From Escherichia phage vB_EcoM_011D4: 64,000 nt of DNA. This document shows, piece after piece, positions 6,638 through 47,257 of this stretch (its first letter is position 1; every line of letters begins with the position of its first letter). Made by a program: the position numbers and the translations under genes. The notes beneath the pieces were generated by a model. It had not been told where the DNA came from. It made no database searches and saw only the letters and a list, made by a program, of their open reading frames with translations. The DNA lies in the sequence record MT478991.1. One strand, written 5' to 3'.

Positions 6638-6925
6638 TTAAAACAGTCCTTCCTGTACACCGTAATAGAGTTCGTCGCTGATAATTTCATTAATGCGACG
6701 GTGTGCATATTCCTGATTTGCGAAGTTGTCAGCAAGTTCTACTTTAGTTTCTCCGTCATGAGTCCATTTAGTGATAACTTTACCATCTGCAAATTTGAAG
6801 TTGAACTCTTTAGCTACCGCATCGCGTACCAGACGTGCAAACTTATTGTTGCGGATTGCATTGTCGGTTTCGTGTGCAGCGTGAGCGAATTTGTTAACTT
6901 TCAGAGTGATAGTAATGTATGCCAT
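6638..6925 (-). CDS. hypothetical protein, paralog family B
   Basis: 95 aa; weak similarity to 9912-10223 (AKEFN region); promoter cassette upstream; terminator downstream. Confidence 0.55.
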   Translation of the reverse strand: MAYITITLKVNKFAHAAHETDNAIRNNKFARLVRDAVAKEFNFKFADGKVITKWTHDGETKVELADNFANQEYAHRRINEIISDELYYGVQEGLF

Positions 6926-8479: not shown

Positions 8480-8511
8480 TTTGATTCTCCGTTTGTTGTC
8501 TTTATGGGAGT

Positions 8512-8540
8512 ATCTTACTACTCCCTTTAATCATTGTCAA
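8512..8540 (-). promoter_or_regulatory. early promoter cassette; hairpin GGGAGTAGTAAGATACTCCC across -10
   Basis: TTGACA-17-TAAGAT. Confidence 0.5.
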
Positions 8541-10268: not shown

Positions 10269-10297
10269 AGTATAGGGGATCGGTGATCCCCTGTCAA
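10269..10297 (-). promoter_or_regulatory. early promoter cassette; palindromic spacer GGGGATCACCGATCCCC
   Basis: TTGACA-17-TATACT. Confidence 0.5.
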
Positions 10298-10310: not shown

Positions 10311-10655
10311 TTATTTTTTCATGAGCTTAATTGCTTCTTCCATAGCCAACACATTTCGATAGTTAGGGTATCGTGTTAGATCGTCATACATTCGCTTAAG
10401 GGTGGAAACTTCCTCAAACTCTGGGTTTTCTAGATACAGTTGAACAAATTGTTTCTCTACCATCTCTGCTTTTAGCTTGTCTGCTTGTTCCTGTTCATAT
10501 GATTTAGTTGGACCCAACACCAACAAAATGATAAAGGTGATCAACGGGCTAATGATCAATGATAGGATAACATAACCGATAACGCTACGGTTTAAACGGC
10601 TTGCATACATGCCTACCAGGAAAACAAAAAGGATATAGATAAACAGAAAGAACAT
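10311..10655 (-). CDS. small membrane protein (2 predicted TM helices)
   Basis: Hydrophobic N-terminal 50 aa then charged C-terminus. Confidence 0.5.
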   Translation of the reverse strand: MFFLFIYILFVFLVGMYASRLNRSVIGYVILSLIISPLITFIILLVLGPTKSYEQEQADKLKAEMVEKQFVQLYLENPEFEEVSTLKRMYDDLTRYPNYRNVLAMEEAIKLMKK

Positions 10656-10662
10656 ATAATGG

Positions 10663-11136
10663 CTACTCCTTATTTTCGCGCTCGTACTTTTCGAAATAAA
10701 ATTCTACTGGCTGGTCATGAATTGACAGCAAGCCAAAGCGTTTAGCCGCTCGCAATCCCATATTGCGCTGAATGTACTTCTGGAAGTTCTCGCGTATACA
10801 CTTACGCCAGTATTCTAAGCCCATACAACTTTTATAAAGATTGCATTGCACACACGCCGGATTCATGTTATCAAGTATATCATGTTCCGGTTTATGCATT
10901 CCTACAACCTTATACTTCCACGATCCATCATCATTACGGGCAATTCGTCCATTTTCATCATAGACTACCTTTGAGCGTCGCAATACTGGTTTGATGTGGT
11001 CTGCGTGCCAGCGATCCCCTAGTTCCTCGCCACAATAGGCACAACGTCCACCATATTTCATTTTCAGGATCTGGCGTTGCTCTTTCTTTGACAATTTTTT
11101 AGGTTTAGGGGCTTTCGCCCCTTCATTATCACACAT
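10663..11136 (-). CDS. HNH endonuclease (free-standing, homing-endonuclease-like)
   Basis: CAYCGEELGDRWHADHIKP ... NPACVQCN motif; start overlaps ligase 3 prime end by 8 nt. Confidence 0.7.
   Translation of the reverse strand: MCDNEGAKAPKPKKLSKKEQRQILKMKYGGRCAYCGEELGDRWHADHIKPVLRRSKVVYDENGRIARNDDGSWKYKVVGMHKPEHDILDNMNPACVQCNLYKSCMGLEYWRKCIRENFQKYIQRNMGLRAAKRFGLLSIHDQPVEFYFEKYERENKE
11107..11120 (-). repeat. GGGGCGAAAGCCCC hairpin at ligase / HNH junction
   Basis: Lies in first codons of HNH ORF and last codons of ligase. Confidence 0.45.
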
Positions 11137-12625
11137 CGAATACCTCTTTTACTGTATTTGCAGTGGTCTTGTCGTAGCGAATACGTTTGATGATTGGGAG
11201 AAATAAAGAGAACTCCGGTTCATCTTCTTTACGTGATTTGCTGCGGATATACCCGTTGCATGTCATCTCAATGACTTTTCCAATCAGGTTATGACGGTCA
11301 GCCCATAACATTTCTCGGTCGAGTTCATTTCGACGATCGAACGGAATTACACGTTCAATACCAACATCATCTTTTTCGGTTGTGGTGTCTGTCAATCCCG
11401 ATCCGGTGTTAGTCGTCATTCGTCCGCACGCACTACGGACAGTAAAACCGCCTACCTTATTGGGGTCTTTACTATGCGGATATACATCAACAATTTCCGC
11501 GTCGAAGTCAATCACTTCTTTAAATTTAACCTGATCTTTACTACGGCGATCTTCAAATACACCATGTAAATTTTTAAGGATAATACCTTCTAAGCCCATG
11601 TTTACATAACGATGATATACTTCGCGAGCTTCATCGATATTGTTAACTACAGTGTTTTCGATGATCTGAACACGAGGATCGTTAAGTTCTTCAACAATCT
11701 GTTTTAGTTCTTCGAATCGATCTTTATATTGCTTCGTTGCCTTCTCGTTTCCATAATACACATCACGGTCGATAACATCCCAGACAGTGTAAACAATACA
11801 TTGGGCTTCTTCTTTTGGAATAGTTCCTTTAAGTGATTTGTTGAGGATACCATTTCCGGTCTGACGATCTGCAACAACGGATTGTTTCACTGCTTCCGCT
11901 ACTGGCGTTAATGGCATTTCCTCTTCTTCAAATATCCATGACAGAGTACCATCATAAACGCTTTCAACGAAGTTCTGCGCTGGTGTTTGCGAAAGGGTAG
12001 GCATATATACCAATTCGCCATCTAGAACAATTCCACGGCCTCGTAGACGCTCTAAAACCGCAAACAAATCATCAAGTCCTTGATAGGTATTACCTGAGCG
12101 GGTATAGATTGCTAATGTTTCCCCGTCAATATCAGCCATACCACGAGCGCCATCGCTTTTAAGTTGTGCATACGCCGGATACTTGATATTAGCAATAGTC
12201 TTATCAGAACATGACGATGCAAGGTGGCACGGCTGCTGGGGGATCAGTTTCTTCCATACCTTGTTTGCAGTGGTAGCTGAACAGCCGCATTCCAGATCAC
12301 GATTCAGGACCATCATTGCAACTTTAGCATCATCCTCTGACAAGCAAGTCAGAGTATCGGTAACTAGCTGTATTGCTGCATTACCAGTTACTTGACGCGT
12401 GGCAAGTTTATTTTTAAAGACCTGTAATGCACCGGATAAAGACAATACAGACGAATAGCGAGATGGTTTATCGTATTTCTTTACGCCAAACGTAACCTGT
12501 TTGCAATATGCCAGATAAAAGCATTCTTTCAGCGTTTCATTGCTTGCAGATTCTTTCAGGATCTTTTCTTTCAGCGATGTTTTGTCGGTTGCTGCAAGCT
12601 GATTAATGATATTAAGAATTGACAT
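11129..12625 (-). CDS. 30: ATP-dependent DNA ligase
   Basis: About 498 aa; recalled T4 gp30 similarity (LKADGAR, VLDGELVY, EGIILKN, C-terminal IRLREDKT-like); start moved to ATG at 12625 after GAGGTGAAA. Confidence 0.85.
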   Translation of the reverse strand: MSILNIINQLAATDKTSLKEKILKESASNETLKECFYLAYCKQVTFGVKKYDKPSRYSSVLSLSGALQVFKNKLATRQVTGNAAIQLVTDTLTCLSEDDAKVAMMVLNRDLECGCSATTANKVWKKLIPQQPCHLASSCSDKTIANIKYPAYAQLKSDGARGMADIDGETLAIYTRSGNTYQGLDDLFAVLERLRGRGIVLDGELVYMPTLSQTPAQNFVESVYDGTLSWIFEEEEMPLTPVAEAVKQSVVADRQTGNGILNKSLKGTIPKEEAQCIVYTVWDVIDRDVYYGNEKATKQYKDRFEELKQIVEELNDPRVQIIENTVVNNIDEAREVYHRYVNMGLEGIILKNLHGVFEDRRSKDQVKFKEVIDFDAEIVDVYPHSKDPNKVGGFTVRSACGRMTTNTGSGLTDTTTEKDDVGIERVIPFDRRNELDREMLWADRHNLIGKVIEMTCNGYIRSKSRKEDEPEFSLFLPIIKRIRYDKTTANTVKEVFDV

Positions 12626-13091
12626 TTTCACCTCGTTTTGTTAAACGTTCACGAATATCATTGAGGATACTACAAAATTCCGATTCAGTCAATATAGTCT
12701 TTAACGGATCAGTTCCACCTATACTATGACGTAATTTCTTATTTCCGGTAGAGAGTAATGCTTTACAAAATTCTGGGTTATTCTGTGCCATCGTAACAAA
12801 TGCCAGATGTACCAGTCTGTAATAATGCTCACTCATTCGATGAATCGGGCGACCCTGAAAATATAACATGTGATTCTCAATCTTTTCAGTTCTTCCGGTT
12901 CTTTTTGCTTTGCCGCCGTGCATCAAAAAGATTTCTCTTTGTCTCTGAGGGTTCTTAAATCTTAGCCCCTGTAAAAATCCTTCTGTGCTGTTAATATCGC
13001 AACCAAATAGACGGAATGGTCTTTTATTGAAATTACTCAATTCACCCGATGGATAAGGTCCACCCGCATAGATATCAATTTCAGAAGTCAT
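12612..13091 (-). CDS. NADAR/YbiA-like domain protein (putative ADP-ribose-processing hydrolase)
   Basis: SEHYY and LSNFNKRPF motifs resembling NADAR (DUF1768) signatures; 159 aa. Confidence 0.45.
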   Translation of the reverse strand: MTSEIDIYAGGPYPSGELSNFNKRPFRLFGCDINSTEGFLQGLRFKNPQRQREIFLMHGGKAKRTGRTEKIENHMLYFQGRPIHRMSEHYYRLVHLAFVTMAQNNPEFCKALLSTGNKKLRHSIGGTDPLKTILTESEFCSILNDIRERLTKRGENVNS

Positions 13092-18441: not shown

Positions 18442-18474
18442 CTTGATACTCCTTAGTTGTTTTGGTATGGGAGT

Positions 18475-18503
18475 ATCTTACTACTCCCGTGATATACTGT
18501 CAA
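18475..18503 (-). promoter_or_regulatory. early promoter cassette; hairpin across -10
   Basis: TTGACA-17-TAAGAT. Confidence 0.5.
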
Positions 18504-21647: not shown

Positions 21648-21676
21648 ATTATAGCGGGGATTTCTCCCCGCGTCAA
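21648..21676 (-). promoter_or_regulatory. early promoter cassette; palindromic spacer CGGGGAGAAATCCCCGC
   Basis: TTGACG-17-TATAAT. Confidence 0.5.
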
Positions 21677-21684
21677 CACTTATT

Positions 21685-23928
21685 TTACAGCTTGCAAGAT
21701 GAGCACTCGCTAGCGTCTTCCGTACCATCAGCACCATCACGCACGTTAGCGTAATACAGGGTTTTCAGACCGTAATATTGAGCAAACAGCATATCATCTA
21801 ACACATCAGCAATATCGACTTTACCAGTCTTATAAGTGCTTGGATCATAGGATGTATTGGAACTAATCGCCTGATCTACAAACTTCTGCATGATCGCTGC
21901 CAGTGTCAGATAGGGCTTGTTACCTTTCTTGATCAGTGTCCAAAGCAGGTCAATAACATCAGCATTATTCTCTACGTTCGGAATAACCTGATTAAATTGC
22001 CCTTCTTTCGATCCTTTAACCGATACAATCCCGCGAGGCGGTTCAATACCATTTGTGCTGTTAGACACCTGAGAGGACGACTCACAAGGCATCAGCGCCG
22101 ACAGTGTACTGTTACGAATGCCATATTTTTTCAGGTCTTCGCGCAGTTCTTCCCAATCCATCTCATACACCGGATCAACCAGTTCATCTACTGTCTTTTT
22201 GTACCAGTCGATAGGAAGTTCACCGCGACCATAGCGTGTTTCGTGCATCAGTTCGCAAGCACCCTTCTCTTTAGCCAGTCGCACACTAGCCTTAATCAGA
22301 GCATATTGCAAGCGTTCAAACGTTTTATGCGTAAACTCGTTAGCGTCTTCATATGTGAAGAAATTATCTGCTAGATATGATGCAAAGTTAGTAACACCAA
22401 CACCCAGAGAGCGACGTTTTTTGGCTGTCAGAGCTTGTTCTACAGGATAATCCTGATAATCTAACAGGTTGTCAAGTGCACGCACCATAACCATAGCAAT
22501 GCGTTCTACTTCTTCCATATTTTCGATATCGAAATTACCTAAAACATATGCTGCCAAAGTACATAGGCTAATTTCTGAATCATCCCGACCCATCGGTTTA
22601 GTAGGCAGTGCAATTTCACAACACAGGTTAGATTGTTTAATCGGTGCTACATTACGAATAAACGCCCCATGATTGTTCATGTTGTCTGTGAACGTTGGGT
22701 AGATTCGACCAGTGTTAAAACGTTCAATTGCCACCGCTAAAAACAGGTCTTCGGCTTTAACACGAGTTTTACGAACACTCGGATCTTTTTCCAGTTTTTC
22801 GTAAAGCTGGCGGAAACCTTCCTCATCTCGGAAGTACAGATCCCACAACAAGCCACCCGCAACATCTGGACTAAACAGAGTAATGTAATCCCGTTTAAGG
22901 AATCGCTCTACCATCAGGTTATTAATCTGTACGCCGTAATCAAGATGACGAATGCGGTTATCTTCCACCCCCTTATTGTTCTTCAACACAATCAGACTTT
23001 CAAACTCTAAATGCCACATTGGGTAATAGAGAGTCGCCGCCCCGCCACGAATACCGCCTTGTGAGCATGACTTAACGGCAGTCTGAAAATGTTTCCAGAA
23101 TGGGATAACGCCAGTATGACGAACTTCACCATGCCCGATCTTAGATCCTTCCGCGCGAATCATACCAGCATTGATACCGATACCAGCACGCTTACTAATA
23201 TACTTGATGATTGCATTTGCTGTTTCGTTGATGCCCTGCAATGAGTCATCACTTTCAATAACCACACACGAACTAAATTGTCGTGTCGGGGTACGCACAC
23301 CCGCCATAATCGGAGTAGGCAGAGAGATTTGCTTATTCGCAACAGCATTATAAAAATCAATCACATGTTCAAGTCGATTTTCTGTCTCTTCTTGATGCAA
23401 GCACATACCGATCAGCATATACGCAAATTGCGGTGTTTCAATGATTTTCTTAGTGCTGCGATCCTGAACAAGATATTTCTCTTTTAACTGCATCGCACCA
23501 GCGTAGGTCATTTTAAAATCAAGTTTATGATCGATGAATTTCTCCAGATATTCCACTTCTTCGCGGGAATACTTTTGCAGAATTTCGCGATCATATTTTC
23601 CGGTTGCAATATTACGCTCAATATGGCTATAAAAATCAATCGGTTGGAATTGACCGTATACTGATTTACGAAGCGCGAACATTGCAAGGTTACTTGCTAC
23701 ATATTGATAATCAGGTGTTTCTACAGTAATGTTATCTGCGGCGACCTTAATCAATACTTTCTGGATATCATTGGTAGACATACCTTCTGTCAGAAGTGGT
23801 TCAACCATATCAAACAATTCATATGGATCAACGTTATGACCTTCGGCTGCCGCTTCCAGAATTTTCATTACTTTTTCTTTTTCAAACGGAACAGTCAGAC
23901 CGGAAGACTTAACAACATTTTTAATCAT
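21685..23928 (-). CDS. nrdA: ribonucleotide reductase large (alpha) subunit
   Basis: 747 aa; ATP-cone N-terminus; catalytic-site regions (NLCCEI, PCESS); synteny. Confidence 0.9.
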   Translation of the reverse strand: MIKNVVKSSGLTVPFEKEKVMKILEAAAEGHNVDPYELFDMVEPLLTEGMSTNDIQKVLIKVAADNITVETPDYQYVASNLAMFALRKSVYGQFQPIDFYSHIERNIATGKYDREILQKYSREEVEYLEKFIDHKLDFKMTYAGAMQLKEKYLVQDRSTKKIIETPQFAYMLIGMCLHQEETENRLEHVIDFYNAVANKQISLPTPIMAGVRTPTRQFSSCVVIESDDSLQGINETANAIIKYISKRAGIGINAGMIRAEGSKIGHGEVRHTGVIPFWKHFQTAVKSCSQGGIRGGAATLYYPMWHLEFESLIVLKNNKGVEDNRIRHLDYGVQINNLMVERFLKRDYITLFSPDVAGGLLWDLYFRDEEGFRQLYEKLEKDPSVRKTRVKAEDLFLAVAIERFNTGRIYPTFTDNMNNHGAFIRNVAPIKQSNLCCEIALPTKPMGRDDSEISLCTLAAYVLGNFDIENMEEVERIAMVMVRALDNLLDYQDYPVEQALTAKKRRSLGVGVTNFASYLADNFFTYEDANEFTHKTFERLQYALIKASVRLAKEKGACELMHETRYGRGELPIDWYKKTVDELVDPVYEMDWEELREDLKKYGIRNSTLSALMPCESSSQVSNSTNGIEPPRGIVSVKGSKEGQFNQVIPNVENNADVIDLLWTLIKKGNKPYLTLAAIMQKFVDQAISSNTSYDPSTYKTGKVDIADVLDDMLFAQYYGLKTLYYANVRDGADGTEDASECSSCKL

Positions 23929-23956
23929 ATTACCTCACTTCATATTTTAGCAGGAA

Positions 23957-23997
23957 CAAGTTTATCCTCCATATTGGGGGCTTTCGCCCCCCTTTGT
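23957..23997 (-). repeat. direct repeat with GGGGGCGAAAGCCCCC hairpin, left flank of methyltransferase pseudogene
   Basis: About 35-bp match to the copy at 24757-24797. Confidence 0.5.
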
Positions 23998-24754
23998 TAC
24001 AAGTCTAACGTATTTTGATGTATTCTGTCAACGGCAATTTGATAATATTTTTCGTCTTTCTCTATGCCGACAAAATTTCGATTTAAGTTTCGACACGCAA
24101 CACCAGTTGTTCCACTTCCCATAGTAAAATCCAGAACAGTTTCCCCCTCGTTGGTGTAAGTTTTTATCAGATATTCCATTAACTCTACTGGTTTCTGTGT
24201 TGGGTGCAATCCTCTTTCTTTACATCGACCGGAATAACTTACAATAGATTCTGGGCATTTGGTATCGTATGTTTTATTATTATAGCTTTGGTTTGTGACT
24301 AAAGGGATCGCCCCACTTTCATTTTTGTTGCTTCCTTTTTTAATTGGCTTGTCTCTTTTCGTCATTTGCGGATAATAAAGTGGCATTTTCCAGTTCTTGA
24401 AAATATGATAACATCTTCATGAATTTTTAACGGTTGTCGTTTTGCTTGAACAAAATTTGCCGCAAATTTTTTATCCCACACCCAAGAATAACAGAATCCG
24501 TTCATATTACTATGAATTAATGCCGTTGTGAATGGTTGAGACGCGGTCATGACAATGGCATTTTTAGGTTTAATTATTCTATTAATCGCCGCCCACATTT
24601 CAGTAAATGGTATAACACTATCCCATTTACACGCTGTTGTTCCATATGGAGGATCACAAAGAATTAAATCTACGCTTTCCGTTTCAATTTCTTTCATCAG
24701 TTCCAGACAATCCCCGTTCATCAACCAGATTTTGTCAGTTCTAACGTCATTCAT
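23997..24754 (-). pseudogene. beta-class DNA methyltransferase (N6A or N4C) split by a +1 frameshift
   Basis: ORF 24362-24754 has DPPY motif IV; ORF 23997-24386 has HPTQKP and DFTMGSGTT (motif I); the two overlap by 25 nt in different frames. Confidence 0.55.
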
Positions 24755-24756
24755 GA

Positions 24757-24797
24757 TATACTATTCCTCATAAATGGGGGCTTTCGCCCCCTTTGTT
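24757..24797 (-). repeat. direct repeat with GGGGGCGAAAGCCCCC hairpin, right flank of methyltransferase pseudogene
   Basis: About 35-bp match to the copy at 23957-23997. Confidence 0.5.
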
Positions 24798-26029
24798 TAT
24801 ACTGCCATTTGAGCGGTGATCGCTGGATGGCTTTGATAGTTGTGGATTTTAAAGTCTTTCGGAGTCTTTGTCAATACCTCATCTAAAGATTTAAATTCCG
24901 GCAACTCAATTGTTGGTTTATCAAACGGAACACGGCTTAACTGTTCCATAACTTGATCAAAATGGTTTTTGTAAATGTGAGTATCTCCACCAGAGAAAAT
25001 CAGTTCTCCTACCTCAAGATCACACATTTTCGCTATGATGTGAGTTAACAGCGCATAGCTGGCAACATTAAAGGGCAAGCCCAAAAAGCTGTCTACGCTT
25101 CGCTGAAACCACATACAAGATAGTTTACCTTCATTGACGTAGAATTGCACGAAAGGATGACATACACCTAATACAGCATTATGTGTTCCTTGTACGTTCC
25201 ATGCGTCAATGATAATACGTCTATTATACGGATCATTCTTGATTAAGTCAATCACGTTTTGTAACTGGTCTTCCCAAATCTTCGGGCGATAGACATATTC
25301 TTCATCGTCTTTAGTGCTTGATGTGTCTACGTCCATACTAACAAAGATCGTGGTATCCGGTGCTATAATATCCCCACCCAGATAATCACTATCAAGCAGA
25401 TAACCGAAATAACCATCATCTACCCATTCCTGGAATCCCCACAAGCAATATGCATCATTAACAAAATTAGATTGGGTCTTCCAGTGATCTGCTACTAAGA
25501 ATTGATTATATTCAGAATCAAACTCTTCATAACGCATACCACGCCAGATAGCACATAAACGGTCTTCTGTTTCATTGGTTGGCGTAAAGTCTTCTACCCA
25601 CGGGTGTTTAAATGTATGTGTATATTTGCTATTAACGCGCTTAATTTTGATTTCACCATGTGGATGAATCGGTTTGCGTCGCCACGCCATACCATACATA
25701 TTGCCGACATTATAACCATTGAATCGCAAAGGATTCTTTTCTTTCATATCAAGACAGTTACCGCGCCAAATGTCAAAGGCTTCTTCGTCAAACTTACCGC
25801 GTGTAATTTCCTGTAAGCGACGGCGGTCAAGTGATCCTTCCATAAACCATAGCAACTCGCCAATTACAGAGGCTGTAGCCATCTTTTTAGTAGTCAGTAA
25901 GGGGAAACCCTTGCTTAAATCAATTCGCATCTCTGCACCGAATTTAGAGAGCGTACCGACCCCCGTGCGGTCTTCACGAGGCCAGCCATTATCAAGAACA
26001 TCACGCAACAGTTTCAAATATTCTTTCAT
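24797..26029 (-). CDS. td: thymidylate synthase with a large internal insertion
   Basis: N-terminal EDRTGVGT, catalytic core LGVCHPFVQFY, C-terminal HPAI..AV; 410 aa vs about 286 aa recalled for T4 Td; no intron (continuous frame). Confidence 0.85.
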   Translation of the reverse strand: MKEYLKLLRDVLDNGWPREDRTGVGTLSKFGAEMRIDLSKGFPLLTTKKMATASVIGELLWFMEGSLDRRRLQEITRGKFDEEAFDIWRGNCLDMKEKNPLRFNGYNVGNMYGMAWRRKPIHPHGEIKIKRVNSKYTHTFKHPWVEDFTPTNETEDRLCAIWRGMRYEEFDSEYNQFLVADHWKTQSNFVNDAYCLWGFQEWVDDGYFGYLLDSDYLGGDIIAPDTTIFVSMDVDTSSTKDDEEYVYRPKIWEDQLQNVIDLIKNDPYNRRIIIDAWNVQGTHNAVLGVCHPFVQFYVNEGKLSCMWFQRSVDSFLGLPFNVASYALLTHIIAKMCDLEVGELIFSGGDTHIYKNHFDQVMEQLSRVPFDKPTIELPEFKSLDEVLTKTPKDFKIHNYQSHPAITAQMAV

Positions 26030-27758: not shown

Positions 27759-27790
27759 AAAAAAGCCTCCCCGAAGGGAGGCTGTAAAAT
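27759..27790 (-). terminator. rho-independent terminator downstream of gene 32
   Basis: GCCTCCCTTCGGGGAGGC then TTTTTTATT. Confidence 0.65.
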
Positions 27791-27793
27791 TCA

Positions 27794-28735
27794 TTAGAGA
27801 TTCAGAAGAGAATCAAGGTCATCCAGATCCGAAGCGGAGGAAGTACCGCCACCCAGGTCCAGAGATGCCATCAGGTCATCAGCGGAAGAACTCGACGCGG
27901 TGATAGCTGAGGTAGTACCAGCGTCGAATGCATTCATCTGAGCATCGAAATCATCAAGCTGGCTGTTAATCGCTGCCGCAGCACTGGAAGCCGCAGCACC
28001 AGCTACCATAGACACGCCCATAGTTTTCTTAAATTTGGTTTCCAGTTCATCAAACGGTTTAAACTGGCTAGGTGCTACAATCTCACCCAGATCAACCATG
28101 TTTTCCATCAGATATTTCTGATATGCTTCGTCTTCAATTTTCGGAAGCTGTGATTGCTGCATGAAACGAGAATCATCATAGTTCTGGTGTTTATCAACCT
28201 TCTTAGCTTTCAGGAGGAAGTTAGCGCCAGAGAACACACAAGTTACATCGACCGGAACTTCGCCCATATCGGTATTCACGTTCACCATTGCAACGATCTT
28301 ATCATAAATTTTCTGACCGAAGCGGAATTTGAATACCTTACCTTCGTTTTCTGGTGCTTGAGGATCTTTCAGTACCAGAATATTTGCGTAGTAAGACGCT
28401 TTACGTTTAATCAGTTGCCATTCGGTTTTATCGGTATTGTACAGATCTTTTTCGTTAATATATTTGCACACCGGGCAAGAATCAAAATCACCGTGGGTGC
28501 TGGAGCAGTTTTCCCAATACCATTTTCCATTAACTTTGAAGGAATGGTTTACCAGTTTCACAATCGGCAGACCGTCTTCTGTCTTAGACGGCAGGAAGCG
28601 AATCAGGGCTTCACCGTTACCCGCTGCATCAGTCTTAATCTTCCACTCTTTCGGATCTTCTTTGGAAAAACCGTTGCCACCTTTCAGTGCGGCCAGTTGA
28701 GCTTGCAGTTTGGAGCTATCTTGACGTTTAAACAT
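27794..28735 (-). CDS. 32: single-stranded DNA-binding protein gp32
   Basis: Strong similarity to recalled T4 gp32 (FLPSK, CSSTHGD.DSCPVC zinc site, [15 protein letters not shown], acidic C-terminus); start at ATG 28735 (track start is GTG). Confidence 0.9.
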
Positions 28736-28771
28736 ATTCACTATTCCTTCTTTTGATTAATTTACTAGACT

Positions 28772-32364: not shown

Positions 32365-32372
32365 TATAAATA
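32365..32372 (+). promoter_or_regulatory. T4-type late promoter TATAAATA for gene 34
   Basis: Exact TATAAATA about 30 nt upstream of ATG. Confidence 0.6.
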
Positions 32373-32400: not shown

Positions 32401-35400
32401 ATGGCAGATTTTTCTCAACATTTCAAGGCCACATTTGGCTTTGACGCTGGTAATGAAAAGGTCGTCAATGTAGCATTGGCTGATAAGAATGTCAACACCG
32501 ATGCGGTCAACGTTGAATTTTTCAATTACCATAATGGTATTACTCAGTATGACACAACTCGCGGTTATGATCAATACGGAACTACAATCTATCAAAACCG
32601 TCCATATTATGCAAAAGAAGATATCACAAAGCCAGCAGGTGATTTTGACCCGACTAAATGGCAAGCACTGCGCACGGACCCACGTTGGGATTATGTTGCA
32701 GCAACTTCCGGTGATACTCCTTTACAGTCTGGTGATTATATCGCAGCAGATGGTCAATTTGCAAACTTGACTTTCTCTATGCCAACTAAACCAGCAGAGG
32801 GAGACACTATAACAGTAAAAGATATCGGTGGCAAGTGTGGTGTTAACGAATTATCGTTCTTGAGTTCAGGACATGAGTTTTACCATAACGGTAATGTGTA
32901 TAACCGAAAATGGTATTGCACTACCCCGTATGCAATGAACTATTTCATCTTTGTTCGTAATCGTTGGCATGTTTATCAGACAGGAACAGAGCCACGCGGT
33001 GTGTATGCACAGCCAGCGATTGATGCTATTCAAATGCAGAATGGTGATCAGGTATTTCGTCGTAGTTCGTTGGGTAATATTACCTTAGTGCTTCCTAAGT
33101 TTGCCAACAATGGCGACATGATCCAGACTACAGACCTTGACGGATTAACCGCAACCAACCACGTTACGGTTAAAGTTCATGAGCACGCAGAAGAACAATC
33201 AATTGGCACGTCCGGTCTAAAAGAGATTATCGGTAAGCGTAGCGGTCATGGTGTATTCATCTTTGACAAGACGGAAAACTTATGGCGTTTGTGGGATGGT
33301 GATCAGTCTGTTCGTCTTAAACCGATCATCGATGACACTCGCTTGCAACCTAATAGCTATGTTGCCGTATTTGGTGATCGTGATGTTACTCTGACGCTGC
33401 CGACCAATGTCGAGCCGGGTGATCGTATTCAAGTTTCTATGCAGTATATGCACGGAAACCAGAATTGCCGTATTATCACCGCCACAGAGGATACAAAAAT
33501 CCTTATGCAGAAAAACATGGTTCAGTTTCCTAAGCGTAGCGAGTACCCATTCAATGGGACCGATACATGGACGGGAGTATCTGAATTGTCTTTCAACGCT
33601 GCAAATGATTATGTACCTTATCTGGAGTTCTCTTATTCAGAAGGTGATGATGGTAAGAAATACTGGTTGGTGGCACATGCTCACCCGATTGTAGAACGAG
33701 TAGATCCGACTCGTAAAGATCGTGTTGGTGTAATTGCACTGGCTACCCAGGATGAAACAAACAAAAACCATGAAGATAATCCTAGCGACGAAGTTGCGGT
33801 GACTCCAAAGGTTCTGGCTAATAAAACAGCCAACGAAACTCGACGCGGTATTGCTCGCATTGCAACTCAAGCGGAAACGCATCAAGATACTGGTTCCAGC
33901 TTCCTGGATGATGTTATCGTTACGCCTAAAAAGTTAAATAATTGTGTTGCTACCGAAGCCCGTCGTGGTGTGATGGAAATTGCAACCCAGCACGAAACCA
34001 ATGAAGGTTTAGACGATACCCGCGCTATTACTCCTAAGAAATTAGAAGAACGTCGCGCTTCCGAAGATCTCGCTGGTATTGCTGAAATTGTTCAGGCTGG
34101 CGGTAGTGCTGCCGCTCGACGTGGCGAAGCTGGTACAGGGATCTATAACATCAACGACCATGCTAAAATTGTTACGCCACAAAACATCAACGAAGTCAAG
34201 GCGACCGAAACTTCCCGTGGTGTTGGCTATCTGGCAACTGACGCGGAAGTGCAAGGGGCTACAGAATCAACCCCGCAAGATGCTTTACTAATCACGACTC
34301 GCACGCTAACGAAACGTACTGCTACCGAATCGCGCACTGGTATCGCTGAAATTGCAACTCAGGAAGAAACAAACTTAGGTCAAAGTGATAACCATATCAT
34401 CACGCCTAAAAAGCTGCATACTCGCCGCGCAACGGAAACTTTACATGGTTTAGCAGAAATTGCAACTCAACCGGAGTTTGACGCAGGTCTTGACGATGCT
34501 CGCATTTCTACCCCATTGAAGATTAAAACCTTCTTTGAGAATGCACAGCGTTTGAAAGTAGATCCGACTCAGGGGCTTAACCTTACTGGTGATTTGTGGC
34601 AAGGTATCATGATTCGCGGTCTGGACGCAACCGAAGACACAAAAGGTGTCGCTAAAGTTGCTACTACTCAGCTTACGGATGCTGGTCAAGATGATACTAC
34701 AATCATCACGCCTAAAAAGCTGCAAGGCAAAAAGGCCACCGAAGGTAAAGAAGGTATTATCCGAGTTGGTACTCAAGCCGAAACCGTGGCTGGTACACTG
34801 GCTAATGTAGCAATTTCTCCGAAGAACTTCAAATATGTTGTTCAGACAGAGGATACATGGAAAGCAACCGAAGCGCGTCGTGGTTTCTTGAAAGTTGCCA
34901 CTCAGGAAAACTGTTTTGTTGGTGATAATCTGCAAGGTTCTACTCAAGAACTAGGAAACTACCAGCATGACGGAATTGCTGTTACTCCGAAAGGATTAAA
35001 CTACGCACTTGCTAATTTCTTACCTAAGATGGCAACCGCTCAGAATAGTTTGAAATTGGGTAACGTAGAGGCCGCTAAATGGGCGCGTAGAGACATTGAC
35101 CAGACCATAGAGAGCAATTACACGTTTAATAAAAACGTTAACGTGAAGGGCGATTTAGGGTGCTTAAAATCTGGTTCCTTTGAAACTCTGTCTGTGACTA
35201 AGAACTCGACCGATGGTCCGAGTAATGGTCATCTGGTGTTGGGTGAGCGTGGAGTTGACGGTCACACCGGAATTACTCTGCATGGCACAACCGCATCGGA
35301 AGGCATGAAAAACTCGTGGTCTATTATCGTTGGTGGTACTGGAACAGCGCAAGTTGTTGATAGTGATGCTATCGCTTTCGGTAAAATCAATGATGGTGGA

Positions 35401-36141
35401 GTCGTCGAGCATTACGCCTTTGCTATGGAACACAATGGCGACGCGACAGCATATAGAGACTTTATTGCAGGTCGTAACCTGTATGCGAAACAAGGCGGTT
35501 TATACATTGTTGATCAGTCTAATCCGGCAATGACTCGTTCCCCAGATGGTATGCTGAATATCGGTCACGGTGGAAGTGTTAACATCAAGGCAGGTTATCA
35601 AACGTTAACTACAGAGATCGCCGGACAGAAATATCAGATCGTACACGCAGGAAACGCTGACGAAGTTCTTAACCGTCAGTTTGTTAAGAATGCTGGCGAT
35701 ACAATGGTCGGTAAGCTGACTATGGATAATGCGCCTATTGTTTCTGTTAAGCATGAAGCTAGCGCGGCAACCGCTCCAGCAATCGGTAACATCGGTTTCT
35801 GGAATATGCGAGTTACTACCCAGAACATCAAAGAAACTTATCCAGAGAAGAAAAACGGTACTCTGATGCAATGGGGTACTGACGCGGACGGGCTTACCCA
35901 GCTTTGGTCCCCTGATGGTACTCATAAACATTATATCCGTTCCGGTACTGGTGGTCAATGGACTGCATGGGGTGAAATTTACACCAAACAGAATAAGCCT
36001 ACCGCTCAGGAAATCGGGGCAGTAGTTGCAGAAGGTGGTTTAATGAACTCTATGACGGTTCGTGATTGGATCAAAGTTGGTAATGTTAAAATCATCGCCA
36101 ATAATCTGACTCGTACCGTAGACTTTATCTGGGAAGACTAA
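32401..36141 (+). CDS. 34: long tail fibre proximal subunit gp34
   Basis: 1246 aa; late promoter TATAAATA at about 32365; AAAGGAGA RBS; internal ITPKKL/IAEIATQ repeats. Confidence 0.8.
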   Translation: MADFSQHFKATFGFDAGNEKVVNVALADKNVNTDAVNVEFFNYHNGITQYDTTRGYDQYGTTIYQNRPYYAKEDITKPAGDFDPTKWQALRTDPRWDYVAATSGDTPLQSGDYIAADGQFANLTFSMPTKPAEGDTITVKDIGGKCGVNELSFLSSGHEFYHNGNVYNRKWYCTTPYAMNYFIFVRNRWHVYQTGTEPRGVYAQPAIDAIQMQNGDQVFRRSSLGNITLVLPKFANNGDMIQTTDLDGLTATNHVTVKVHEHAEEQSIGTSGLKEIIGKRSGHGVFIFDKTENLWRLWDGDQSVRLKPIIDDTRLQPNSYVAVFGDRDVTLTLPTNVEPGDRIQVSMQYMHGNQNCRIITATEDTKILMQKNMVQFPKRSEYPFNGTDTWTGVSELSFNAANDYVPYLEFSYSEGDDGKKYWLVAHAHPIVERVDPTRKDRVGVIALATQDETNKNHEDNPSDEVAVTPKVLANKTANETRRGIARIATQAETHQDTGSSFLDDVIVTPKKLNNCVATEARRGVMEIATQHETNEGLDDTRAITPKKLEERRASEDLAGIAEIVQAGGSAAARRGEAGTGIYNINDHAKIVTPQNINEVKATETSRGVGYLATDAEVQGATESTPQDALLITTRTLTKRTATESRTGIAEIATQEETNLGQSDNHIITPKKLHTRRATETLHGLAEIATQPEFDAGLDDARISTPLKIKTFFENAQRLKVDPTQGLNLTGDLWQGIMIRGLDATEDTKGVAKVATTQLTDAGQDDTTIITPKKLQGKKATEGKEGIIRVGTQAETVAGTLANVAISPKNFKYVVQTEDTWKATEARRGFLKVATQENCFVGDNLQGSTQELGNYQHDGIAVTPKGLNYALANFLPKMATAQNSLKLGNVEAAKWARRDIDQTIESNYTFNKNVNVKGDLGCLKSGSFETLSVTKNSTDGPSNGHLVLGERGVDGHTGITLHGTTASEGMKNSWSIIVGGTGTAQVVDSDAIAFGKINDGGVVEHYAFAMEHNGDATAYRDFIAGRNLYAKQGGLYIVDQSNPAMTRSPDGMLNIGHGGSVNIKAGYQTLTTEIAGQKYQIVHAGNADEVLNRQFVKNAGDTMVGKLTMDNAPIVSVKHEASAATAPAIGNIGFWNMRVTTQNIKETYPEKKNGTLMQWGTDADGLTQLWSPDGTHKHYIRSGTGGQWTAWGEIYTKQNKPTAQEIGAVVAEGGLMNSMTVRDWIKVGNVKIIANNLTRTVDFIWED
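33780..35000 (+). repeat. about 10 tandem degenerate 35-40 codon repeats inside gene 34
   Basis: Recurring peptide unit ATE.R.GIAEIATQ.E ... ITPKKL in gp34 translation. Confidence 0.6.
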
Positions 36142-36146
36142 TTAAA

Positions 36147-36162
36147 GGGGGCGAAAGCCCCC
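36147..36162 (+). repeat. GGGGGCGAAAGCCCCC hairpin between genes 34 and 35
   Basis: Same hairpin as at 23976, 24776 and 11107 (coding-strand sense in each case). Confidence 0.5.
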
Positions 36163-36174
36163 TATGGGGTTATT

Positions 36175-37314
36175 ATGACACAAGATATAGAATTACGCAA
36201 CACTGGAATTAGGTTTGCGCATTTCGACGAAGACTCTGCGACATTTACCAGCATTTCAGAAAATAACTCTGTGATGTATAAGCTGGAAGTGCGCGGATCT
36301 AATGCGGATTCTACCAAACCAGCAAGAATTAGATTTAATGGAGTGGAGATCGTTGGCACTGGCTATGAAAATGGCCTAAATTTTAAAGTTCTTACTCCAA
36401 CTGGACAACTACACGAAGAAAAGGTATTCTATGGTCGCGGTGCTGTTTTGGCAATGCGTGATTATCTTTCTTTGCTGAAAGGTGATTATATCATTGCGAT
36501 GGCAACTCATGGAGAATTGTTTGCAGATCCGATAAGTGATGTTGTATTTTCTAAGCTGGGATCGGTATCATTCCCGAATCACATTTTGTTACAGCAAATG
36601 CCTCGTGTATCATATGCAGCAATTTATTCTACGAAAATGGGTAAAATTGTTTGTGAGGGTATGCAAGCGACCCACGGGGAAGGACAAGATTCATCTATAC
36701 AAATTGAGAAAGTCTATGATACTATAGATGATCTTGCTATAACAGGAACACCACAACGATTTTTAGATTATCCGGTTGAGTATGTTAGCGAAGATGCCGA
36801 ACATTTCGAGCTAATACAATGGCCTCACGATGAGATCAGCGCACCACTTGAAGATTTTAACATAAAGGCAGGTGACAAACTATCAATATCCTTTGAATTG
36901 TTCCGTGATAGTGCCGCAGCCGCAGCCAACGTAACAGCGCGTTTCTATCACAACTACTTCACCGATGGACAATATAAAACTGGTGTTCGATACAATGCCA
37001 GCAAAAAAGACCAATGGGAAAAGTTTGAAGCAGTCTATACAGTACCGGAAGGTGTCGATGGTGTAGTAACTGGTTGTATCAGATATCCAACCAACTCAAA
37101 TGAAGGTATTGTTAAAATTAGAAACATACTAATAACGCCGATCAGTGGAGTCGTTAAAACTACTGGTCCTACTTCATTTGGTGTTAATGGTGTTAGAACA
37201 ACTCATATTCAGGATAACGGTGATTTTACTAACCCTGTAATGAGTCTTCTTAAACTACCCAGAGATAATAAACACATCACATCCAACAACTTTAAAGAGT
37301 TCGATGTTGATTAA
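36175..37314 (+). CDS. 35: long tail fibre hinge protein gp35
   Basis: 379 aa; synteny between 34 and 36; followed by rho-independent terminator. Confidence 0.6.
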   Translation: MTQDIELRNTGIRFAHFDEDSATFTSISENNSVMYKLEVRGSNADSTKPARIRFNGVEIVGTGYENGLNFKVLTPTGQLHEEKVFYGRGAVLAMRDYLSLLKGDYIIAMATHGELFADPISDVVFSKLGSVSFPNHILLQQMPRVSYAAIYSTKMGKIVCEGMQATHGEGQDSSIQIEKVYDTIDDLAITGTPQRFLDYPVEYVSEDAEHFELIQWPHDEISAPLEDFNIKAGDKLSISFELFRDSAAAAANVTARFYHNYFTDGQYKTGVRYNASKKDQWEKFEAVYTVPEGVDGVVTGCIRYPTNSNEGIVKIRNILITPISGVVKTTGPTSFGVNGVRTTHIQDNGDFTNPVMSLLKLPRDNKHITSNNFKEFDVD

Positions 37315-37324
37315 CATTTTTTAC

Positions 37325-37356
37325 AAGCCGATCCATGTGGTCGGCTTTATTTTTAT
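37325..37356 (+). terminator. rho-independent terminator downstream of gene 35
   Basis: GCCGATCCATGTGGTCGGC then TTTATTTTTAT. Confidence 0.6.
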
Positions 37357-37475: not shown

Positions 37476-37483
37476 TATAAATA
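37476..37483 (+). promoter_or_regulatory. T4-type late promoter TATAAATA for gene 36
   Basis: Exact TATAAATA about 35 nt upstream of ATG. Confidence 0.6.
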
Positions 37484-46022: not shown

Positions 46023-46055
46023 AATATATTCCTCAATGTTTTTCTTGATGGGAGT

Positions 46056-46084
46056 ATCTTACTACTCCCTTAATCCGGTGTCAA
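46056..46084 (-). promoter_or_regulatory. early promoter cassette; hairpin across -10
   Basis: TTGACA-17-TAAGAT. Confidence 0.5.
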
Positions 46085-46304: not shown

Positions 46305-46333
46305 GTGATTCTCCTTTCGTTTGGTATGGGAGT

Positions 46334-46362
46334 ATCTTACTACTCCCGTTTCTTTACGTCAA
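46334..46362 (-). promoter_or_regulatory. early promoter cassette; hairpin across -10
   Basis: TTGACG-17-TAAGAT. Confidence 0.5.
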
Positions 46363-47219: not shown

Positions 47220-47246
47220 AATAAAAAGCCGACCACAAGGATCGGC
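47220..47246 (-). terminator. rho-independent terminator
   Basis: GCCGATCCTTGTGGTCGGC then TTTTTAT. Confidence 0.55.
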
Positions 47247-47257
47247 TTAATAATCAG

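Follow-up and report, generated by a model that had tools for sequence, protein, structure and literature searches.

Escherichia phage vB_EcoM_011D4 (sequence record MT478991.1) repeats a short GC-rich hairpin, GGGGGCGAAAGCCCCC, at borders between genes within the stretch of 64,000 nucleotides (nt) that was analysed here (the window). The hairpins are not efficient terminators but read-through intercistronic structures. They represent an ordinary, known kind of intercistronic phage hairpin and are the promoter-less counterpart of the stem-loops in the PeSL (promoter-early stem-loop) elements of phages RB49 and phi1, each of which consists of a sigma-70 promoter and a stem-loop "generally involving GGGG...CCCC" (Arbiol et al. 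2010, PMC2839356). The account that we favour, with slightly better than even confidence, is that the hairpin acts in the sense RNA as a cap for the upstream cistron (a decay barrier or mild attenuator) and that its repeated DNA serves secondarily as a recombination crossover. We take the RNA-level role as primary because of the fixed distance to the upstream stop codon, the variable distance to the next start codon, the orientation bias of the loop, the replacement of the hairpin by another at one site, and the logic of the operons.

A motif search of the window identified three exact copies of GGGGGCGAAAGCCCCC, beginning at positions 36147 (+), 24776 (-) and 23976 (-), and a fourth copy, AGGGGCGAAAGCCCCT, beginning at 11107 (-) with two mismatches (Table 1). 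Pairing is kept in the 11107 copy because its two mismatches together replace the outer G-C pair with A-T. No match to the motif was found in 100 dinucleotide-preserving shuffles. The initial observation of the sequence-only reading, that a GC-rich hairpin occurs four times in the sense of the local coding strand, was thus confirmed for three exact copies and one still-pairing variant, all four being sense relative to the adjoining genes. The hairpin begins 5 nt after the TAA stop codons of g34, td and the methyltransferase gene and 7 nt after the TGA of the ligase gene, and the next start codon follows at 12-47 nt. The constant spacing to the stop and the variable spacing to the start imply that the element is tied to the upstream gene.

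Secondary structures were predicted using ViennaRNA, which for every copy in its native context gave a stem of 6 bp capped by a GAAA loop and for the lone 16-mer -13.3 kcal/mol; folded as single-stranded DNA the hairpin gave -8 kcal/mol. The predicted stem consists of G/C pairs without bulges and ends in a C-G closing pair under the GAAA tetraloop. All four copies therefore carry C(GAAA)G on a C-G closing pair in the sense orientation, as do Tuerk-type tetraloop hairpins, and all four contain the GCGAAAGC core of the DNA mini-hairpin GCGNNAGC (Hirao). As in a PeSL, a stable poly-G/poly-C stem-loop occupies the spacer between stop codon and Shine-Dalgarno (SD) sequence, with the 11107 copy overlapping the start of an open reading frame (ORF). 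No Rfam 15 family matched any part of the window at the gathering score. The placement of all four copies at gene junctions needed amendment: it holds for three of them, and the 11107 copy, which begins at nt +15 of the annotated HNH ORF (counted from the A of the ATG) and forms its codons 5-10, is hence not intergenic. The sites number three and not four in terms of independence, because the two copies flanking the methyltransferase gene are one ancestral site duplicated by insertion.

The exact 16-mer was found in more than 120 contigs of the IMG/VR database, which is a lower bound. Among the matches listed there were 117 distinct contexts from unrelated viruses, in which 79 copies lay past a stop codon in the sense orientation and 7 past one in the antisense orientation (binomial p=1.5e-16); these orientation counts rest on crude ORF calling, by which 86 contexts were scorable. 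In a first pass the sense copies among these matches lay 4-31 nt past a same-strand stop codon (median 9.5 nt). A T-rich tail (at least 5 T in the next 8 nt) followed 24 of 80 sense copies (about 30%), and 34 of 79 had a same-strand SD sequence and start codon within 100 nt on the 3' side (median 22 nt). The stems, GGGGGC...GCCCCC, read alike on both strands, yet the bias is 79:7, and we therefore consider that it is in the mRNA that the GAAA loop is under selection. The intergenic perfect-stem tetraloop hairpins of an RB49-type genome are distributed likewise, GNRA or UUCG loops being sense in nine cases and antisense in one. When the 21-mer CAAAGGGGGCGAAAGCCCCCA, which includes flanking positions, was used as query, 37 metagenome and 22 viral contigs were retrieved, which fall into about 18 unrelated flank contexts (GC content 28-55%), nearly all of them in the order stop codon, hairpin, SD sequence and ATG. 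Judged by these sequence contexts, the element is a post-stop hairpin generic to phages, with selection on its GAAA loop acting in the mRNA sense. The RNA-level role proposed in the sequence-only reading thereby gains indirect support (79 of 86, and 9:1), while for translational coupling, one of the roles it had suggested, no evidence was found.

Two findings from this survey may be recorded in their own right. In a large group of freshwater contigs the 16-mer lies past a gene whose product has an acidic tail (…EDEEEDEE*). An unrelated phage of 39.5% GC (LWDU01040907.1 / IMGVR_UViG_3300001683_000369) carries two hairpin copies 821 nt apart, at 6806 and 7627 of the reverse complement, each within a repeated module of about 45 nt, ATCCAAAGGGGGCGAAAGCCCCCATYATCAAAGAGGAAATATCATG, and together they flank a block of two ORFs.

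The phage belongs to the RB49-like, T4-type coliphages of the genus Krischvirus: BLAST with the g34-g35 region returned 58 phage records, all Krischvirus (RB49, Phi1, JSE, GEC-3S and relatives), at 90-99% identity. For seven relatives the junctions were read directly, and the other 51 isolates were judged by BLAST coverage. IMG/VR was also searched with the Krischvirus junction sequences, which returned too few contigs to be informative. The RB49-type genome OZ035808 (162 kb) contains the motif, at up to two mismatches, in three places only, namely ligase/HNH, td/nrdA and g34/g35. Among the relatives read directly the hairpin is conserved in 6-7 of 7 at ligase/HNH and g34/g35 and in 5 of 7 at td/nrdA, where RB49, GEC-3S, Phi1, JSE and JK32 have a single hairpin between the two genes. 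The g34/g35 junction is unchanged across all relatives. At the ligase gene, the HNH gene adjoins the 3' side in 7 of 7, and the variable boundary of this region lies downstream of the HNH gene, off the hairpin, both in the seven relatives and, by BLAST coverage, in the rest. An ORF of 114 amino acids past the HNH gene (10311-10655, -), judged from its position to be probably the homologue of RB49 ORF211, is present in JSE and E26 and absent in Phi1, GEC-3S and JK32, which places the variable boundary at the PeSLs past the HNH gene, away from the ligase/HNH hairpin. The sole sequence variant of the hairpin among the relatives is the ligase/HNH copy of E26, in which the loop GAAA is changed to AAAA; in the HNH frame the change is silent (GCG to GCA).

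Outside the genus, the 34/35 spacer of T4 has 8 nt and no hairpin, and between td and nrdA of the Winklervirus CHI14 there is an overlapping small ORF and no hairpin. TransTerm sites are present in RB43 at td->nrdA and past gene 30, so that at least one further genus has this kind of hairpin, though not this sequence, at td/nrdA. The search of related genomes for the motif at variable-gene boundaries, suggested with the sequence-only reading, thus found the motif in relatives and such a boundary at td/nrdA, but not at g34/g35 or ligase/HNH.

In the window the td/nrdA junction has the order td-TAA-ACAAA-hairpin-A, about 775 bp of foreign sequence, TAA-CAAAG-hairpin-A, ancestral spacer, and nrdA. 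The insertion amounts to 800 bp and is bounded at both ends by a direct repeat of 21-22 bp that comprises the hairpin. The GC content of the cassette is 36.3% vs 40.4% for the window. In its methyltransferase gene, a 1-nt deletion within the A-run at 24386-24389 (-), which is A4 in the window and A5 in three other contigs, creates two overlapping ORFs; the gene is therefore either inactivated by a real mutation or affected by a homopolymer sequencing error. No database record matched the exact split ORF, and repairing the frameshift by 1 nt yielded a protein of 252 amino acids identical to a database protein. Three metagenomic Krischvirus contigs code for this intact protein in the arrangement td-hairpin-methyltransferase-hairpin-nrdA, with junctions identical to those of the window, while the insert was found in none of the 58 Krischvirus isolates. 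Across the cassette-bearing contigs, versions of the stem with 5 G and with 6 G are distributed differently between the two arms, as expected if the arms exchange. The next homologues of the methyltransferase (71-73% amino acid identity) are in unrelated phages and lack the hairpin. The cassette leader was absent from the JGI metagenomes and IMG/VR, and BLAST retrieved the cassette at the DNA level from no phage isolate.

A second allele of the same site was found in E26, LF73P4 and Makalu_001, whose junctions were read and which carry a different ORF of 100 codons between td and nrdA; in four further isolates BLAST span and annotation are as in these three (seven apparent in total). A hairpin without a T-rich tail, GCGGGGAG(A/G)AATCCCCGC, here lies directly past the td stop codon and ahead of the 100-codon ORF. 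Its stem-loop is identical to the one that the window has in a PeSL downstream of nrdA (21654-21671), and this match suggests that stem-loops may be exchanged between sites. By these comparisons td/nrdA is a multi-allelic site at which the structure and position of the post-stop hairpin are kept and its sequence is swapped. The cassette comparison shows the td/nrdA copies as crossover points at the DNA level, and the td/nrdA hairpin resembles PeSLs in flanking facultative genes and marking the endpoints of insertions and deletions, which the hairpins at g34/g35 and ligase/HNH do not. The simplest agent of cassette insertion is ordinary phage homologous recombination.

Other features of this region were noted. 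The ancestral td/nrdA spacer (23940-23972, -) contains a mini-ORF of 10 codons, ATGGAGGATAAACTTGTTCCTGCTAAAATATGA, which terminates in ATATGA, as the ORF of the alternative cassette does, and may be a deletion scar. The predicted td product has 410 amino acids vs 266 positions in the Pfam profile. Hypervariable patches of td (approximately 25075-25600, -) lie 300-800 nt upstream of its stop codon, with up to 41 differences per 100 nt vs GEC-3S and JSE, while the final 200 nt of td and the whole 5' end of nrdA are nearly invariant. The identity of the td 3' half is 90-96% vs 97-98.6% for nrdA. A mosaic breakpoint at the td/nrdA hairpin was considered on this basis and rejected as recombination evidence, since the divergent patches map upstream of it.

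The exact bounding of the cassette by the repeat, and the different cassette that other isolates hold at td/nrdA, would also be expected if the hairpin served primarily as a recombination site that forms a structure in single-stranded DNA, where the GCGAAAGC mini-hairpin would extrude and cassettes would be captured and excised, any RNA role being incidental. The same may be said of the unrelated contig with two copies around a two-ORF block, of the PeSL crossovers that map to the stem-loop, of the fold predicted for single-stranded DNA, and of the behaviour of d(GCGAAAGC), a classical and exceptionally stable DNA mini-hairpin that resists binding by single-stranded DNA-binding protein and the exonuclease of T4 polymerase (PMC13037366). 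This explanation is nevertheless unlikely. At two of the three ancestral sites the hairpin does not vary between presence and absence among the seven relatives, and BLAST coverage suggests the same for the other 51 isolates; identical stems should be indifferent to strand, yet the copies are strongly biased in orientation; and the other td/nrdA cassette does not reuse the GGGGGCGAAAGCCCCC hairpin. The suggestion that the hairpins are recombination hotspots marking cassette insertion points applies to td/nrdA only, as g34/g35 is invariant and the variable boundary near ligase/HNH lies elsewhere.

A GC-rich stem directly past a stop codon could also be an efficient terminator by virtue of the hairpin alone, ending the ligase, td and g34 transcripts. 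The stem-loop of PeSL211/210, which corresponds to 10274-10292 of the window and has no T-tract 3' of the stem, cut lacZ expression about as much as rrnB T1 did (PMC2839356), and the T-rich tails of about 30% of the copies in other phages, among the matches listed, point the same way. We nonetheless hold termination to be distinctly improbable. The 8 nt 3' of the stem contain 3, 4, 2 and 1 T in the four copies, and a U-tract, which the sequence-only reading had likewise noted as lacking, follows none of them; a terminator scan flagged the element on the antisense strand only, where it reads TTTGTT. The three ancestral hairpins are not among the 41 TransTerm terminators of RB49 (2006 list), which does contain 35->36, 36->37 and the site past gene 32, and the terminator annotation of GEC-3S marks other hairpins but not these three.

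The promoters lead to the same conclusion. On its plus strand, the tail-fibre operon has two late-promoter cores TATAAATA and no others: one at 32365 precedes g34, the second at 37476 precedes g36, and they match the RB49 predictions Pl:144977 and Pl:150089. Because no such core lies between the g34 promoter and g35, g35 must be transcribed through the 36147 hairpin, and a canonical terminator follows after g35, 1.2 kb further. Neither a sigma-70 site nor a late-promoter core was predicted between the hairpin and g35, nrdA or the HNH gene, so that none of these genes has the promoter of its own that would be expected past the end of a transcription unit; nrdA of the window would even sit behind two such terminators. 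Near the hairpins themselves, no promoter-like site was found at 36147 or 11107. Near 23991 there is only TTGACA-18-TAGACT (10/12), within the coding end of the methyltransferase gene, and near 24791 TTGACA-17-TAAAAT, about 55 nt upstream in td, which equals the weak RB49 prediction Pe:136961 (score 9 vs 30-47 for PeSL promoters). Lacking the sigma-70 promoter, the element falls outside the strict definition of a PeSL and behaves as the stem-loop half alone would. The denial of standard terminators in the sequence-only reading is upheld on all three grounds, the missing U-tract, the published terminator lists and the promoter-less downstream genes.

Under the sense-RNA cap account favoured here, RNA polymerase would mostly read past the hairpin within polycistronic transcripts. 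After endonucleolytic cleavage or pausing, the mRNA hairpin (about -13 kcal/mol) would cap the 3' end of the upstream message and block 3'-5' exonucleases, and it may mildly attenuate read-through. Expression of the upstream gene (ligase, td or g34) would in this way be more stable than that of the downstream one (HNH nuclease, cassette or nrdA, and g35, respectively). At the DNA level, the copies of 21-22 bp would form a short patch of perfect homology at which the methyltransferase cassette entered and could leave, by phage homologous recombination or by template switching, as published for the PeSL stem-loops of RB49 and phi1. The long tail fibre of T4 has three gp34 per gp35. Given such a ratio, a hairpin that favours expression of g34 over g35 would be sensible. 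Processing by RegB (at GGAG) was considered as a general partner of the hairpin and rejected, as GGAG occurs 3' of the ancestral td/nrdA copy only.

Several points weigh against this account. A literature search found no transcript-end, decay or transcriptome data for Krischvirus. By analogy with the PeSL211/210 reporter result, tail-less hairpins may stop transcription to a far greater extent than "mild attenuation" conveys, although so strong an effect sits uneasily with the need for g35 and nrdA expression. Invariance among genomes that are 96-99% identical carries little information on selection, and the 11107 copy lies inside an ORF, where constraint on the coding sequence may be conceived, the lone variant being synonymous. 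As for recombination, the cassette itself aside, no breakpoint of a mosaic was seen at the td/nrdA hairpin in the divergence profiles, and homology-driven insertion is not proven vs duplication during illegitimate insertion because a hairpin-bearing cassette donor was not found.

It is very unlikely that the hairpin mainly controls translation, either by insulating or down-tuning initiation downstream (keeping the HNH nuclease low, for example) or by uncoupling ribosomes that terminate upstream. Such a role would suit the 11107 copy, which follows so closely on an HNH ATG that itself overlaps the ligase stop, as well as the proximity of the next start codons and the SD sequences and starts in the foreign contexts listed, and in T4-like phages some free-standing homing endonuclease genes are known to have hairpins that sequester the ribosome-binding site (Gibb & Edgell, as cited in PMC3014915). 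In the predicted folds, however, no copy pairs with an SD sequence or start codon, and it is the spacing to the upstream stop, not to the start, that is constant. A more speculative proposal is that GGGGGCGAAAGCCCCC with its A-rich flanks is a portable gene-junction module that moves promoter-less cassettes between unrelated phages as an integrase-free analogue of attC, in which case cassettes such as the methyltransferase would move via hairpin-templated recombination or template switching; we regard it as a long shot. Least probable of all are functionless neutral copies of a thermodynamically favoured sequence, spread via duplication or recombination, for although the 16-mer is generic and one of the four copies is a by-product of duplication, the regularities of position and orientation are far past chance and the alternative td/nrdA allele still keeps a hairpin.

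Table 1. Hairpin copies, genes and hairpin classes of the window (coordinates are positions of the window)
Feature	Coordinates	Strand	Remarks
Hairpin copy 1, GGGGGCGAAAGCCCCC	36147..36162	+	5 nt past g34 stop, 12 nt ahead of g35 ATG; stem reaches 7 bp with A-U pair 36146/36163, conserved in 7/7 relatives examined
Hairpin copy at td 3' end	24776..24791	-	Upstream arm of the direct repeat of the methyltransferase cassette
Upstream repeat unit, CAAAGGGGGCGAAAGCCCCCA	24775-24795	-	
Hairpin copy past methyltransferase stop	23976..23991	-	Downstream arm of the direct repeat
Downstream repeat unit, CAAAGGGGGGCGAAAGCCCCCA	23975-23996	-	One G more; ancestral td/nrdA spacer begins beyond
Variant copy, AGGGGCGAAAGCCCCT	11107..11122	-	Outer pair A-U; 7 nt past ligase (gp30) TGA
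Cassette body, beta-class N6/N4 DNA methyltransferase	23997..24754	-	DPPY motif; PF01555
g34, proximal long tail fibre subunit	32401..36141	+	Late-promoter core TATAAATA at 32365
g35, tail fibre hinge connector	36175..37314	+	Without late promoter of its own
Hairpin then T-tract after g35	37325..37347	+	RB49 TransTerm "35-->36"; ends g34-g35 transcription unit
td, thymidylate synthase	24797..26029	-	Cistron upstream of td/nrdA hairpin
nrdA	21685..23928	-	Downstream cistron; promoter-free stretch from hairpin(s) to start
DNA ligase gp30	11129..12631	-	Cistron upstream of 11107 copy
HNH endonuclease ORF, phi1 ORF212 homologue	10663..11136	-	Start ATG overlaps ligase stop (ATGTGA)
Class A, classical PeSLs, stem-loop between TTGAC and TATAAT	3117, 5250, 8751, 9877, 10274, 18469, 21654, 46050 (examples)		
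Class B, hairpin then T-tract	6253, 13298, 27764, 37325, 47226 (examples)		C(UUCG)G loop at 27764
Class C, tail-less promoter-less post-stop hairpins	four motif copies and 9300, 49889, 51271		

The genes of the window are directed to the minus strand from position 1 to about 32.3 kb, to the plus strand from 32.4 to 43.0 kb (the tail fibre genes 34-37) and to the minus strand again beyond. A census of the GC-rich hairpins in the sense strand of the window resulted in three classes (A, B and C in Table 1). Exact 16-mer hairpin repeats fall into two families only, the GGGGGCGAAAGCCCCC motif and the PeSL stem GGGAGTAGTAAGATACTCCC, whose four copies are identical (8506-8525, 18469-18488, 46050-46069 and 46328-46347, all -) and lie between a TTGACA -35 and the -10 region. 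Within class B, the hairpin past g35 recurs in near-identical form, AAGCCGATCC(A/T)TGTGGTCGGCTT with a T-tract, at 47226-47248 (-), 10 kb off. The C(UUCG)G tetraloop hairpin at 27764-27783 (-), AGCCTCCCTTCGGGGAGGCT, is followed by TTTTTATT and lies directly past an ORF of 315 amino acids (27794-28741) that is expected from its synteny with relatives to be gene 32. This hairpin is probably the published conserved terminator that follows gene 32.

For annotation, the results mean that these hairpins are not to be called terminators but read-through structures, which probably tune relative expression, with gp34:gp35 as one possible case. The td/nrdA hairpin offers a sequence-resolved example of an RB49-like phage, whose cytosine is unmodified, gaining an orphan DNA methyltransferase, which is likely an anti-restriction trait and as such bears on host range and phage therapy. 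The published idea of shuffling at PeSLs is extended to a promoter-less stem-loop within an operon of core genes, and the phage-wide sense bias of the 16-mer provides a handle to separate RNA-level from DNA-level roles of hairpins. The main interest lies in the clean capture of a cassette at a promoter-less stem-loop in a core operon and in the sense bias of the exact hairpin across phages.

Among known systems, rho-independent terminators share the GC-rich hairpin near a stop codon; the element differs from them in having no U-tract, in escaping TransTerm prediction and in preceding genes without promoters. Intercistronic stabiliser hairpins at 3' ends set differential expression within operons, for instance the repetitive extragenic palindromic (REP) elements of malEFG in E. 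coli and the hairpin of Rhodobacter puf. Like these, the element is a hairpin without U-tract past an upstream cistron that is read through, and by analogy protection of the upstream message from 3' exonucleases would be expected; REP elements are longer and host-encoded. Integron attC cassettes also combine a promoter-less ORF with a hairpin-forming repeat, their insertion leaves a hairpin past each ORF, and circular intermediates have been proposed for the related PeSLs. The attC sites, however, are longer, imperfect and recognised as folded single-stranded DNA, whereas the hairpin here has a perfect, bulge-free stem of 6 bp and is not known to have an integrase, no search aimed at one having been made.

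The intergenic regions of T4 and other phages are rich in stable tetraloop hairpins (Tuerk et al. 1988, as cited in PMC8948821). The hairpins of this type, with C(UUCG)G or GNRA loops, agree with the element in their short GC stem, C-G closing pair, mainly intergenic location and mRNA sense; the element differs in its GAAA instead of UUCG loop, in the repetition of its exact sequence and in doubling as a recombination junction. The PeSLs, which are concentrated in hyperplastic regions, mediate insertions, deletions and mini-circles, and in RB49 a crossover was mapped to the loop (PMC2839356); td/nrdA, ligase and methyltransferases are not mentioned there. They are found in the same genus as well as in further T4-like phages and share the poly-G/poly-C stem, often with a GAAA or GAGAAA loop, the placement between upstream stop codon and downstream SD sequence, the repetition within the genome and the use as crossover for insertion or deletion of single-gene cassettes (PMC2839356; Comeau et al. 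2014, PMC4122927). The four motif copies differ from PeSLs in being without a sigma-70 promoter and AT-rich upstream element; three of them lie among core genes (td/nrdA and g34/g35) rather than in a hyperplastic region, and one belongs to a late operon, in which an early promoter would be out of place.

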